Assembly: GCA_048937405.1 (NCBI GenBank)
Contig: JBHLNF010000007.1
Coordinates: forward strand, 64,001-128,000
From: Promethearchaeota archaeon
GTDB lineage: Archaea; Asgardarchaeota; Lokiarchaeia; Sigyniarchaeales; SOKP01
Direction: 5' to 3'
Length of the DNA: 64,000 bases
The translations under genes were made by a program, and so were the position numbers. Under the pieces are notes generated by a model. The model searched no databases and was not told the origin of the DNA. It saw only the letters and a list, made by a program, of their open reading frames with translations. Shown piece by piece: positions 8,457 to 15,054 of this stretch (position 1 is its first letter; the number at the start of each line of letters is the position of its first letter).

Positions 8457-8609
8457 TTGGCTCCAGTAGATAAAGAACTTCAAGAAGAAATTAAAAAAGG
8501 TGTAACTCTTCAAAAAGTTGATGAAGCAGAATTAAAGAGACGTGAAGAAGAAAAAAAGAAACGTATGGAAGAATTAGAAAAAGTAAAAGCAGCTCTAGGT
8601 GAAAAATAA
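8457..8609 (+). CDS. Uncalled 50-aa mini-protein with WH2-like motif and charged single helix
   Basis: TTG start with AGGTG SD about 10 nt upstream; MAPVDKELQEEIKKGVTLQKVDEAELKRREEEKKKRMEELEKVKAALGEK; T-rich tract downstream. Confidence 0.75.
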   Translation: MAPVDKELQEEIKKGVTLQKVDEAELKRREEEKKKRMEELEKVKAALGEK

Positions 8610-11289: not shown

Positions 11290-11913
11290 ATGAGTCCGAT
11301 AATTACACATCAGGATGAATTAATCTTAGCGAAGACTGAGAAGGAATTAGTCTCCCAATTTAAAAAACTAGCTAAATTACAAAGCACTCTTATAGATTCC
11401 CAGAAAAAGTATGCAGAAAATCTAACTAGAGCAAATATTTTTAGAGATATGCTAAATCGAACTTTTAGAGATGTATTAAAACAAATGGAAACTCTTGCTC
11501 GAGAACATAGATCAAATATTAAGGATGAAGAGGTTAAGTTATATAGAGAAATAATCCAAAAAAATGACGATTTCATAAAAGATAATAATGCATACCTAAA
11601 TGCAATTAAAGATGTTACGATACAAAAAGAATACTTAGTTCAAAAAAAAATAGAATTTGCCGATGCCTTAGCTAGTGTTGCAAGTAGAAGATCAACTGTA
11701 ATTAGAAAAGCTTTGAATGTTGAAAAAGCGAAAAACAAATTAATCGATGGTGATAAATTAAACATTCTCGACCAACAACTTAATGATGTTCAAAGAGATT
11801 TTGATAGAGCACGAGATATATTATTAAAAAAAATATATCAGTTTGTTGAAGTAAGAGATGAGATTAATACCTTGTGGATCAAATTAAAAGATACTATAAC
11901 CGAATTAAGTTAG
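11290..11913 (+). CDS. All-helical coiled-coil protein, BAR-domain-like
   Basis: 207 aa of long helices; C-terminal DKLNILDQQLNDVQRDFDRARDILLKKIYQF recalls helix 3 of SNX/Vps5-type BAR domains (by eye). Confidence 0.5.
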   Translation: MSPIITHQDELILAKTEKELVSQFKKLAKLQSTLIDSQKKYAENLTRANIFRDMLNRTFRDVLKQMETLAREHRSNIKDEEVKLYREIIQKNDDFIKDNNAYLNAIKDVTIQKEYLVQKKIEFADALASVASRRSTVIRKALNVEKAKNKLIDGDKLNILDQQLNDVQRDFDRARDILLKKIYQFVEVRDEINTLWIKLKDTITELS

Positions 11914-12039: not shown

Positions 12040-12501
12040 ATGTGTGCCGAAGAATTTGCAAGCTTCTTAGATAGTACTCGAAAAGCGCCATTGGAAGAAA
12101 AACTGAATGCATTTGGCGATATCATTGAAAAAATTATGTCAATTGTTTTACGCATACCAGATTTAGTAGATCAGTCTCTTGGTTCTGTAAATGATAAAGT
12201 ATCAAATTTACAAAATCAAATAAATTCTTTAAATAGCCAAATAACATCTCTACAGTCTAGATCAGGGGTAACTCCAACGGCATCCGCTCCAGCGGCACGT
12301 ACCCCAGGCGGTCCTCCAGGAGGCCCTCCAGGATCTCCACCACCAACACCAGGTGGTCCACCAGGTGGTCCACCAGGCGGTTCAAGAGGACCTGGTGCTC
12401 CACCCGGTCCTAGTCGTCCTGCAAGTCCAGTTTCGCTTAGAGGTGCTATAATGGGAGAACTTAAACAGTTGTTTGCAAAGAGAAAGAGCCAATCTGGCTA
12501 A
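12040..12501 (+). CDS. Coiled-coil / Pro-Gly-rich / C-terminal basic amphipathic helix protein (NPF- or VASP-like architecture)
   Basis: Heptads VNDKVSNLQNQINSLNSQITSL; PGGPPGGPPGSPPPTPGGPPGGPPGG; tail SLRGAIMGELKQLFAKRK. Confidence 0.6.
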   Translation: MCAEEFASFLDSTRKAPLEEKLNAFGDIIEKIMSIVLRIPDLVDQSLGSVNDKVSNLQNQINSLNSQITSLQSRSGVTPTASAPAARTPGGPPGGPPGSPPPTPGGPPGGPPGGSRGPGAPPGPSRPASPVSLRGAIMGELKQLFAKRKSQSG

Positions 12502-12697
12502 TCAATATTACCAAACAACAAATTCAATTATTCTTTTTTCTAAGGATAATCAATCTTATGTATGATTACTAAATTAATTAAAAATTTGATTGCAGCTGAT
12601 TTTAATCTAAGATTTTTTGAAATAATTTAATTAAAATTAAAAATTTTCTTAACTTATCATACTAAATTCCAACTTTAAAGTTTAGTGGTTAAGGGAA

Positions 12698-14449
12698 TTG
12701 GAACCAACAAAAGAGAGATCCGTTAAAAGTGCTAATGTTAGAGTCGCCCATGACTTGCAAAGACAGATATTAGAAATGACTTCCTTTTTAAGAGTCATGA
12801 ATAATTACTATAAAAAAAAAATAGAGCTTCAAAATCGAGTAAAACCATTTATTCAAAGAATGTACAAAGGGGAATTAAAAGAAATTAATGAAAATGAATA
12901 TTGGCTTTATACGATACCACTTGCTTTAAATGTGCTGAGTAAAGCTTTTTTAAATAAAGAAGATTCGTTTAAATTTCCTGATAGCATTATTTTATTTGAA
13001 GCATGGATGCATTTAGGTATTAATGCACTGTATCCTCGAATTGCGCTTCAATTTCAATTTCCAGGATTATTTAGAGGTGAAAAAGTAAGGAATATTTTTC
13101 AATTTATTTATTCTACTTCCCGTGGATTTGGCTTTCCAATGAATTTTGGACCAGAATTCTATACTTATAAACCCAAGCTGGCTCGTATTCTGGATCCATT
13201 ATTAAGATGGAGTTACACCGTATGTCATCGAGCTAATCAAGCAATTTTATTAGGAAATAAACTTTTAAAATCTAAAAGACATCATCCAGGTGATTTTGAA
13301 TCAGTTATAATATCCGAATTTACTAATCATATATTTAAAGGAATTGATACAATCTTACATGGATATTTTAAAAATGAAGCAAAAGATTTAGATAAATTTT
13401 CTTCCTTAAACGATCTCCTTTCAAATTCTACTTTTTATTATTCTATTGGAGATCATGCAATGAGAATTGAAAGTGATAATTTAAACAAAGTTTTATCTAT
13501 TCCTTTAGTGACTCATGAATTTATAGTAAAAAAGTATGCGGTTGACTTCAAATTTTACGTTAAAACCCTCTTAGAAGTAAATAAAATGTTAATAAAGAAA
13601 ATAAACTATTACAGAGAACTGAGGAATAATCTTATCAGAAAATTAAATAAGAAAGACAAAGTTAAATTAAGGACTGAACAATCAAAGCATTTTGCGAAAA
13701 AAATTGCTAGAATGTCCCGAAAACTTTCGAAGAAATATCCAATTATTGATATTTATAGCCACAATAAAACATTATTAGAAAAAATTAGGGAACTTTTATT
13801 TACTACACCAATCTATATGCACGCAAGTCAATTTCCTGAAAATTCTCAAACAAATTCTAATAAATTATCTAAAAGTAGAGAAAAAATTGATAGAATTAAA
13901 AATAAATCAGTAGACTCAATTTTATTATTATATATTAAAAAATTTGAAAAGAATCATAATTTTAAATTTGAGGAAGAAGAAGTTTTAGATGAACTGGAGG
14001 GATTACATAATATTATCACTAAAATGTGGATAGCATTTAAAGAAAATCATTTTAGATTTGCAATGAATAAATTAAATGCATTATCAACGCTTGGTATATA
14101 TGAAAAGAATTATAAAATTAAAATTAATGAACTTTTAGATGAACTTCTTCCTATTTTAGCCATTTATGAGATGTTTAACAGACCATTATTTGAATCAGTA
14201 TATCCAGAGTCGATTCCACAAACTAAAAGACTTGGAACATATTTTGCTCGTTTTTTAGCATCAAAATATAACCTTTTTGGTACTAATTTAATGAAAATAA
14301 TCAATAGATTAGCTTTTCATAATTGGAGTTACCTCATAATTAAGAAACAAATGAATAGGAGAGAATTTTTTAACTATCTTCTGAAATTGCCAATCTGGAA
14401 ATATATTCCCTCAAAAATAAAAACACGAATAATTGAACAAAATAATTAA
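12698..14449 (+). CDS. Hypothetical helical protein
   Basis: 583-aa ORF, no recognised motif. Confidence 0.7.
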   Translation: MEPTKERSVKSANVRVAHDLQRQILEMTSFLRVMNNYYKKKIELQNRVKPFIQRMYKGELKEINENEYWLYTIPLALNVLSKAFLNKEDSFKFPDSIILFEAWMHLGINALYPRIALQFQFPGLFRGEKVRNIFQFIYSTSRGFGFPMNFGPEFYTYKPKLARILDPLLRWSYTVCHRANQAILLGNKLLKSKRHHPGDFESVIISEFTNHIFKGIDTILHGYFKNEAKDLDKFSSLNDLLSNSTFYYSIGDHAMRIESDNLNKVLSIPLVTHEFIVKKYAVDFKFYVKTLLEVNKMLIKKINYYRELRNNLIRKLNKKDKVKLRTEQSKHFAKKIARMSRKLSKKYPIIDIYSHNKTLLEKIRELLFTTPIYMHASQFPENSQTNSNKLSKSREKIDRIKNKSVDSILLLYIKKFEKNHNFKFEEEEVLDELEGLHNIITKMWIAFKENHFRFAMNKLNALSTLGIYEKNYKIKINELLDELLPILAIYEMFNRPLFESVYPESIPQTKRLGTYFARFLASKYNLFGTNLMKIINRLAFHNWSYLIIKKQMNRREFFNYLLKLPIWKYIPSKIKTRIIEQNN

Positions 14450-14466
14450 ATACACTTTAATACGTA

Positions 14467-15054
14467 TTAAAATTCCAAAAATCCAGGATCATCAAAAATA
14501 TCATCGATTTTACGCTCTTTTTTTATCTTGGTCTCACTTTCAGCAAATAAGGATTCTTCATCAGTACGAACTCCACGTTCTAATTCTTCGGTATCTAATT
14601 TTAAGATTGTATCCTTTTCTAATTTCTTGTATTCTTCGCCTTTCATTTTCCAGTTATTAACTTCATCTAAATTAACATCTTCTTCTTCTAATAATACAGC
14701 AGCTTTAGTTTTACAAAGATCCGATAAAATAGAATAAGCTAAAGCTAATTCACCCCATTCGTGATCTTCTTTTAATCTTTTTATTCTTTTCTCTAATCTT
14801 TGTAATTCTTGATCAGCATAGTAAATATCAATAAAATCTCCGAATGCATCTACAGGTTCTGAAATTGAATTAACTAATACTTCTTTAGTTAAATCGCAAT
14901 TTCCGCATTTCACCGTAGCAAAAGCACCTTTCTTCTTAATATCAGTTACCTTGACGCTCTTTTCACCACATTCTGGACAGGTAAAGATTTTTGGCACTCG
15001 CTTTACACGTTTAGGAGAAACTTGTTTACGTTTTCTTCTTCCCATTATTATCAC
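14467..15054 (-). CDS. elf1: Transcription elongation factor Elf1 with C-terminal extension
   Basis: MGRRKRK...KIFTCPECG...CGNC...EPVDAFGDFID, followed by about 110 extra helical/acidic residues. Confidence 0.85.
   Translation of the reverse strand: MIIMGRRKRKQVSPKRVKRVPKIFTCPECGEKSVKVTDIKKKGAFATVKCGNCDLTKEVLVNSISEPVDAFGDFIDIYYADQELQRLEKRIKRLKEDHEWGELALAYSILSDLCKTKAAVLLEEEDVNLDEVNNWKMKGEEYKKLEKDTILKLDTEELERGVRTDEESLFAESETKIKKERKIDDIFDDPGFLEF

Follow-up and report, generated by a model that had tools for sequence, protein, structure and literature searches.

A stalk-arm-end-helix protein of Asgard archaea whose module recurs at the C-terminus of Rag/Arf-like GTPases: a candidate adaptor between small GTPases, membrane and cytoskeleton

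To our knowledge, the known regulators of actin in Asgard archaea are profilins and gelsolins, and any account of how eukaryotic cell dynamics arose has still to explain what couples Lokiactin to membranes and to the many small GTPases of these archaea. The described systems that invite comparison here are the Ena/VASP proteins, the WH2 proteins with an upstream proline-rich region (WASP, WAVE, WIP, MIM), terminal membrane-targeting helices and, within the Asgard archaea, the gelsolin 2DGel of Loki type (PDB 7whg), which also has a Zn-ribbon element (PMC9433394). In their report on Lokiarchaeum ossiferum motility, the authors expect regulation to be ‘more intricate’ (PMC13716822). Here, we describe a gene in a 64,000-nucleotide stretch of a Promethearchaeota archaeon (assembly GCA_048937405.1, contig JBHLNF010000007.1, forward-strand positions 64,001 to 128,000; hereafter, the window) whose 153-amino-acid product consists of a helical stalk, a flexible Pro/Gly arm and a near-invariant C-terminal helix, the tail (Table 1). 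Since Rag/Arf-like GTPases from the same genome and from the databases share this stalk, arm and tail, the small protein looks, as far as its sequence tells, like a free-standing copy of the C-terminal part of these GTPases that is devoid of the GTPase (G) domain.

A profile of the tail run on all open reading frames (ORFs) of the window's own genome returned, apart from the gene itself, three further ORFs, each matching at its very end (...NELKDLFSKRRSLDL, ...SELKELFIRRGLVPHKNI and ...RELKELLEKRSK; pattern ELK[DE]L[FL]..R) and each with Arf and Gtr1_RagA Pfam matches. One of these GTPases is collinear with the 153-amino-acid protein over residues 6-148, residues 6-45 aligning with what we read as the last helix of the G domain and the stalk that follows it. 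The G domain of the tail-bearing GTPases is nearest to PDB chains 8yl2_A and 8zla_A, annotated ‘GTP-binding protein’, and a database entry for such a GTPase bears only the name ‘ADP-ribosylation factor-like protein’. The census of fused forms, which rests on an exhaustive search of 1.84 billion representative proteins, includes P0162, P0185 and P0194, in which a helix-hairpin-helix (HhH)-like domain is followed by an Arf/Gtr1-RagA G domain, stalk, arm and tail (e.g., SLRGAIMGELKELFAKKK); residues 17-150 of the query align to residues 308-425 of P0162 with an E-value of 1.6e-8 against the 1.84 billion proteins. The tail profile likewise finds 150-amino-acid frames in 61 relatives, with weaker matches in open frames of 400-480 amino acids in many genomes. 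A search for longer proteins with alignment A2 was dominated by proline-rich proteins, and one with region 114-153 gave no candidates. The small protein and the Rag/Arf-like GTPases thus have in common a homologous stalk, a flexible arm and the ELKxL[FL]..R helix in collinear order; unlike the GTPases, the small protein has neither a G domain nor the HhH-like N-terminal domain, its arm is far richer in Pro and Gly, its tail is more strictly conserved, and it reaches Odin-like and Thor-like lineages, where GTPase fusions were not sought.

The stalk also occurs alone, both fused to Ras/Rab-like GTPases (P0151, P0199) and inside gelsolin-domain proteins. P0227, a metagenomic protein of 560 amino acids, begins with a Rab-like GTPase, followed by two gelsolin domains (the first at 33.8 bits, above the Pfam cut-off) with the stalk between them and then by a Zn ribbon; its stalk is 45% identical to residues 18-77 of the 153-amino-acid protein (E-value 2e-20). 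Residues 104-195 of P0148 match the Lokiarchaeota 2DGel structure (7whg_G; E-value 9e-11). In such fusions, a gelsolin domain stands where the arm and tail would be. P0148 and P0227 carry gelsolin domains matching those of Loki-type 2DGel and end in a Zn ribbon as well, whereas the 153-amino-acid protein has no gelsolin domain and is linked to 2DGel solely through the shared stalk. These fusions are the best evidence that the stalk module may work near actin, a link that we consider real but indirect. Taken as a whole, P0227 resembles a Loki-type 2DGel that is preceded by a GTPase and whose two domains are separated by a coiled coil.

The gene itself is an ATG-to-TAA frame of 153 codons. An earlier note on this DNA had proposed a miniature protein resembling VASP or an actin nucleation-promoting factor (NPF), made of heptads, Pro-Gly repeats and a C-terminal helix; this three-part layout is borne out by the sequence and by an AlphaFold2 model built on an alignment of 55 sequences, in which helices 2-14 and 18-74 have a predicted local distance difference test score (pLDDT) above 90 (95-98 for the stretch within residues 47-71), the arm is disordered (pLDDT ~50) and the end helix scores 79-92. 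The heptad a and d positions, as read from the sequence, are L47, V50, V54, L57, I61, L64, I68 and L71. The arm (residues 75-129, TPGGPPGGPPGSPPPTPGGPPGGPPGG...) has its GPPGGPP repeats with PPP at most, in agreement with the earlier description of its Pro runs as short and Gly-interrupted. The protein ends in SLRGAIMGELKQLFAKRKSQSG, and the terminal GAIMGELKQLFAKRK (residues 135-149) lies within the predicted helix 130-152. Pro and Gly codons raise the GC content over the arm to 0.52-0.57 from a background of ~0.25, a 48-amino-acid ORF spans the repeat on the opposite strand, and a six-T run (12534-12539) lies 3' of the stop codon. Pfam searches of the protein, its neighbours and three distant homologues yielded only coiled-coil noise for this family, even at E ≤ 10; Foldseek found no match to the model in the PDB, a sequence search of the PDB with the tail profile returned only a designed coil and S100A12 (both E ≥ 0.34), and the ESM Atlas returned only members of the protein's own family.

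Table 1. Positions of the gene, its parts and related or neighbouring features (window coordinates unless a contig or locus is named; res, residues; pLDDT and AlphaFold2 as in the text).
Feature	Position	Strand	Basis
Whole gene, stalk-arm-end-helix protein P0001	12040..12501, stop codon included	+	ORF list, translation
Helical head: helix 1 (res 2-14, AEEFASFL...) and first half of helix 2 with invariant I-P-D kink (res 18-45)	12043..12174	+	invariant columns, AlphaFold2
Heptad coiled coil (res 47-71); sequence variable, a/d positions retained	12178..12252	+	3-4 spacing read from sequence; inside AlphaFold2 helix
Low-complexity Ala/Pro/Gly arm (res 75-129) with GPPGGPP repeats, predicted disordered	12262..12426	+	pLDDT 48-54
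Near-invariant C-terminal amphipathic basic helix (res 130-152): PVSLRGAIMGELKQLFAKRKSQS	12427..12495	+	AlphaFold2, conservation
Tail-bearing GTPases of the same genome	G000:C7:959786-961039; C7:206373-207857; C19:244689-245921		
207-amino-acid three-helix BAR-fold protein (neighbour)	11290..11913	+	AlphaFold2, Foldseek, conserved adjacency
Roadblock/LC7-like small genes beside the target in other genomes (f4, G128)	L089:2552-3007; L090:2797-3249; L039:7510-7911	+; -; +	by eye
583-amino-acid ORF	12698-14449	+	
Elf1-type zinc ribbon gene	14467-15054	-	Pfam, E 3.6e-18

The gene is real and conserved well beyond chance. A word-indexed protein search gave 195 near-length homologues at E ≤ 0.01, the named ones all from metagenome-assembled genomes of Promethearchaeota, Lokiarchaeota, Thorarchaeota or ‘Hodarchaeota’; the exhaustive search of representatives gave 104 clusters at 50% identity, and a profile search across 399 Asgard genomes of the phylum recovered the frame intact in 229. 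Within the window's own family (f1), the gene is present in 121 of 133 genomes; it is also found in nearly all of the window's order and class and in five further family-level groups, among them small genomes of ~1.4 Mb that are putatively Odin-like and a large group whose relatives the protein atlas names Thorarchaeota. It was not detected in eight family-level groups of at least five genomes each in the 399-genome profile search. No convincing homologue outside the Asgard archaea emerged from the searches made and every named one is Asgard, which agrees with the expectation of the earlier note that homologues be confined to an actin-bearing lineage.

Alignments of close (26), phylum-wide (18) and mixed (55) sequences show both ends of the protein, 45 residues at the N-terminus and 20 at the C-terminus, to be nearly invariant, and the heptad stretch and arm to drift in sequence and length. 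Invariant columns of alignment A1 are A3, E5, F6, F9, P17, E19, K21, F25, G26 and I28 in the head, continued by E30, M33, L37, I39, D41, L42 and D44. The consensus of the last 20 residues is P-x-S-L-R-G-A-I-M-G-E-L-K-x-L-F-x-K-R-K. Across classes, where the rest of the protein is 25-35% identical, fixed columns are confined to E140, L141, K142 and L144 and the motif ELKxL[FL] is retained; in the 55 diverse sequences, E140 is invariant and the other three are kept in at least 90%. The tail, on whose conservation in Asgard homologues the NPF/VASP proposal depended, is accordingly the most conserved part of the protein across classes. The 124 unique tails keep R134 (an R in 116 of them), I137, M138, E140, L141, K142, L144, F145, K147 and R148, and their variable positions relative to E140 are only -5, -1, +3, +6 and +10, which form a single stripe of the helix. 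Proline runs of four to six are present in some lineages only, L. ossiferum-like and other relatives having PPPPPG runs; runs of at least four are absent from the 153-amino-acid protein and from Thor-like and several other lineages. Two tandem copies of the small stalk-arm-tail gene were observed in two genomes of neighbouring families (G126:C93:51024-51532, G124:C202:85-667). Three further sequences were set aside: P0203 (106 amino acids, on a 941-nucleotide contig), in which a signal peptide and a cytochrome c haem motif are joined to the arm end and tail in perfect form, most likely arose as a chimera during assembly, and the leucine-rich repeat proteins P0182 and P0189 were judged spurious or chimeric as fusions of this family.

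The part of the earlier proposal that concerned actin fared less uniformly. Its layout, its conserved tail and its restriction to Asgard archaea stand, but no EVH1, EVH2, WH2 or WAVE-homology match was found. As in Ena/VASP, a coil (here putatively oligomerizing), a flexible stretch rich in proline and a short basic amphipathic helix with a hydrophobic/basic pattern like that of the F-actin-binding motif (FAB) are combined here; in contrast to Ena/VASP, the parts come in reversed order with the coil first, the 153-amino-acid protein has no EVH1 and no G-actin-binding motif (GAB) or WH2, the coil is of heptad type where that of VASP is a right-handed tetramer, and actin binding is a candidate property only. 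The FAB sequence that the note had given is correct and corresponds to residues 259-278 of human VASP (PMC10340426). Its residue-for-residue alignment with the tail holds in that hydrophobic and basic positions coincide, more closely for Thor-like tails (GGLMGELKSLLAARRKK) than for others, but against the tail profile human VASP FAB reaches 2.4 bits and the VASP GAB ~0 bits. A coarse pattern covering both FAB and tail hits four ORFs in the 1.4 million ORF residues of the window's own genome (shuffled, 0.4), two of them unrelated; several chance matches are therefore to be expected in a eukaryotic proteome, and the likeness to FAB does not appear to be statistically supported.

Other elements of actin assembly factors gave a similar picture. 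In the protein and three distant homologues, no Pfam match at E ≤ 10 was found for EVH1/WH1. The VASP tetramerization coil PF08776 gave no match either; the coil here is N-terminal and of the canonical heptad type. The KLRK and LKKT motifs of GAB are lacking from the 153-amino-acid sequence. WH2 (PF02205) had no match at E ≤ 10, there is no LKK[TV] motif, helix 130-152 reaching the C-terminus, and no WH2-containing chain appeared in the PDB profile search. WH2 proteins of the WASP, WAVE, WIP and MIM kind likewise have a Pro-rich stretch followed by an amphipathic helix, here one beginning with L-R-G-A-I, yet they differ in the LKK[TV] that follows the helix and in the acidic, Trp-bearing end that closes the V-C-A region of WASP, WAVE and WASH; the C-terminus of the present protein is basic and has no Trp. 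The suggestion that the coil resembles a WAVE-homology helix was not upheld, as Pfam at E ≤ 10 gave no WAVE- or WASH-homology match above sub-threshold coiled-coil noise: WASH_WAHD (E 0.072) and CCDC53 (E 0.11) were seen on relatives, below threshold and among dozens of coiled-coil families. The caveat that Loki profilins do not bind polyproline is confirmed by the literature, where binding of VASP polyproline was reported to be absent for the Loki and Odin profilins and weak for two N-terminally extended ones (PMC8410842). An ESCRT-III MIM1-like motif for the MIT domain of Vps4 was also considered and set aside on a comparison by eye, E replacing the key R and F replacing K/R.

The probable ortholog in L. 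ossiferum is GNAMCCOK_02219 (152 amino acids; genome G138), so assigned because the neighbouring Elf1 matches GNAMCCOK_02218 by mass (24.01 kDa), an index that fits its position in that genome. It was detected in 16 of 16 published proteomes with a mean log2 intensity of 18.47. Among the rows listed of the Lokiactin co-immunoprecipitation (co-IP), which span log2 ratios of ~10 down to -1.06 with 841 further rows outside, five gelsolins, one profilin and one ‘Arf’ GTPase are significantly enriched and GNAMCCOK_02219 is absent; its authors state that membrane-associated proteins are under-represented in this co-IP (PMC13716822). The co-purifying ‘Arf’ GTPase (GNAMCCOK_04696, 38.1 kDa) maps by mass to a 329-amino-acid protein at locus L053 (G138:C1:5470844-5474425), which pairs a Rag/Arf-like G domain with a globular C-terminal one instead of being a 20-kDa Arf; as it is devoid of the tail, it was rejected as a carrier.

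The gene preceding the target in the window encodes a protein that has no Pfam match and that AlphaFold2 models with a pLDDT of 92.5 as three helices (7-71, 79-149 and 154-202). The 20 best Foldseek matches are nearly all BAR domains, albeit with E-values of 0.011 or weaker, and the highest TM-scores (0.58-0.62) are those of arfaptin, a GTPase-binding BAR protein. This BAR-fold gene adjoins the target throughout f1, in the order BAR then target; the order is reversed in G131 and G132, the two genes are convergent in G130, and in f4 one roadblock-like gene stands between them. Since the adjacency survives three rearrangements, a functional coupling of the two genes is suggested. They are unlinked in the closed genomes G135, G138 and G143, and members of the BAR-fold family occur in 139 of 399 genomes, all belonging to one order and essentially to f1-f4 only. 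Its probable L. ossiferum ortholog, GNAMCCOK_02568 (23.9 kDa), belongs to the most abundant proteins (mean log2 22.0) and, in the co-IP rows listed, is only weakly enriched with Lokiactin (log2 0.71, adjusted p 0.053). Elsewhere, G128 has a roadblock-like gene beside the target and a gelsolin-domain gene within 1.5 kb, and in the Odin-like and Thor-like genomes the neighbours are unrelated housekeeping genes.

On balance, we hold it somewhat better than an even chance that the protein is a dimeric adaptor of the interface between small GTPases, membrane and cytoskeleton, whose end helix docks on a conserved partner. The conserved head and heptad stalk would pair two chains, presumably as a parallel dimer given the I/V at a and L at d positions; each chain would extend a 55-residue flexible Pro/Gly arm, and each arm would end in a 20-residue amphipathic basic helix docking on one specific, highly conserved surface, such that the dimer might serve as a bivalent tether between GTPase, membrane (the BAR-fold neighbour) and cytoskeleton (the gelsolin fusions). 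Dimerization, docking and the identity of the partner are what we infer here. The docking surface is probably a protein, as conservation holds the charged R134, E140 and K142 no less firmly than the hydrophobic residues; fixation of both kinds is what a specific protein interface brings about, and binding to lipid makes no such demand on a helix. Among the candidates that can be named for this surface, the actin filament comes first, though it is a doubtful one, and a lipid surface is only slightly less doubtful. Several points count against the adaptor. The docking partner has been neither observed nor predicted, the oligomeric state is read from the heptad pattern alone, and the charge (+2 to +4) and hydrophobic moment (0.29-0.52) of the tail also fit a membrane-binding helix. 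The gelsolin fusions amount to four sequences (P0227, P0148, P0176, P0228) in two related clusters and may for that reason reflect one event. The L. ossiferum ortholog was assigned through gene order and the mass of the neighbouring Elf1, not through an accession number. The BAR-fold protein, considered as the universal docking partner of the tail, had to be dismissed because its family is found in one order and the tail is phylum-wide.

The end helix might, alternatively, be a membrane-targeting amphipathic helix that holds the coiled-coil stalk, or the fused GTPase, at the membrane by way of the arm. This is possible, if rather unlikely. Terminal amphipathic basic helices of this kind are known from MinD and FtsA, from unlipidated Ras-family GTPases with their polybasic tails and, after a coiled coil, from septins, and share with the present tail a flexible linker before the helix and attachment to GTPases or a coiled coil. 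The tail is amphipathic and basic, with six hydrophobic residues on one face and the charge and moment given above, and sits at the extreme C-terminus behind a predicted disordered linker; it ends small GTPases at the very place where those of eukaryotes carry their membrane anchor, the neighbouring gene has a BAR fold, and the absence of the ortholog from the co-IP rows listed would suit a membrane-bound protein because the co-IP under-represents membrane-associated ones. Membrane-targeting helices, however, usually conserve physico-chemical character only, and an acidic residue is of no help on anionic lipid, whereas here E140 is invariant and K142 and R134 nearly so over phylum-level divergence; moreover, the mean hydrophobicity is modest (0.1-0.27), and in P0200 the motif is internal with an acidic stretch after it. 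It is less probable still that the end helix is a true actin-filament-binding peptide, which would make the family and the tail-bearing GTPases a GTPase-coupled, oligomeric, proline-rich actin regulator. Least persuasive among the functional readings is the full Ena/VASP- or NPF-like assembly factor in miniature, in which the coil would oligomerize, the arm recruit profilin-actin and the helix bind F-actin so as to drive elongation or bundling. It draws on the same three kinds of part as VASP, on the coincidence of hydrophobic and basic positions with FAB 259-278 (Thor-type tails being nearer), on the stalk inside gelsolin-domain proteins, on the PPPPPG runs of relatives and on the confinement of the family to actin-bearing Asgard archaea. 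Set against these are the 2.4-bit score of FAB on the tail profile and a shared pattern that arises by chance, the lack of a WH2, EVH1 or EVH2 match and of a PDB sequence match, and the missing long proline runs here and in Thor-like and several other lineages; Loki and Odin profilins are reported not to bind VASP polyproline (PMC8410842), the ortholog is absent among the co-IP rows listed while gelsolins and profilin are enriched there, Rag/Arf-like GTPases end in the same kind of tail, and eight family-level groups of at least five genomes each yielded no member of the family. Finally, the GC jump, unusual for this genome, and the opposite-strand ORF could have pointed to a spurious or decaying frame born of a GC-rich repeat in AT-rich DNA; its conservation refutes this with near certainty, the frame being intact with conserved ends in 229 genomes and the probable ortholog present in proteomes, and the GC jump is that of Pro and Gly codons.

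A literature search found no paper describing the family, the motif or the tail sequence, and two papers on Asgard Arf proteins make no mention of such C-terminal tails; the small protein family thus appears to be undescribed so far. The family is physically linked through its genes to a BAR-fold protein, roadblock-like proteins and gelsolin domains, and one short invariant helix common to a small adaptor and a Rag/Arf-like GTPase family offers a handle on the coupling of Lokiactin. Knowing the partner of this helix would tell us if GTPase switches were already connected with actin, or with membranes, in Asgard archaea much as they are in eukaryotes. Should it bind actin, the family would be the first Asgard actin-binding class outside profilin and gelsolin, and a functional analogue, perhaps even a forerunner, of the FAB and C-helix elements of Ena/VASP and WASP-family proteins; should its partner be lipid only, it would represent a new kind of archaeal GTPase membrane anchor.

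Some further observations concern the surroundings of the gene. A 50-amino-acid WH2/thymosin-like gene in the window (8457-8609, plus strand) with an LQKV motif was considered for a link to the tail and dismissed, there being no sequence likeness between them. In f2-f4, the target, the BAR-fold gene, an archease gene, a roadblock-like gene and RtcB form a syntenic block. The 583-amino-acid ORF that directly follows the target on the same strand has no Pfam match; it is missing at that place in G135, G138 and G143 and kept in f1 between the target and Elf1 (44-51% identity, L041, L043). The Elf1-type zinc ribbon protein encoded next carries a long acidic helical extension, and its L. ossiferum ortholog GNAMCCOK_02218 appears in the rows listed of the Lokiactin co-IP (log2 1.36, adjusted p 0.034), an enrichment that is probably unspecific. 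In three closed f3 genomes, the two genes share a strand, with Elf1 immediately upstream of the target.

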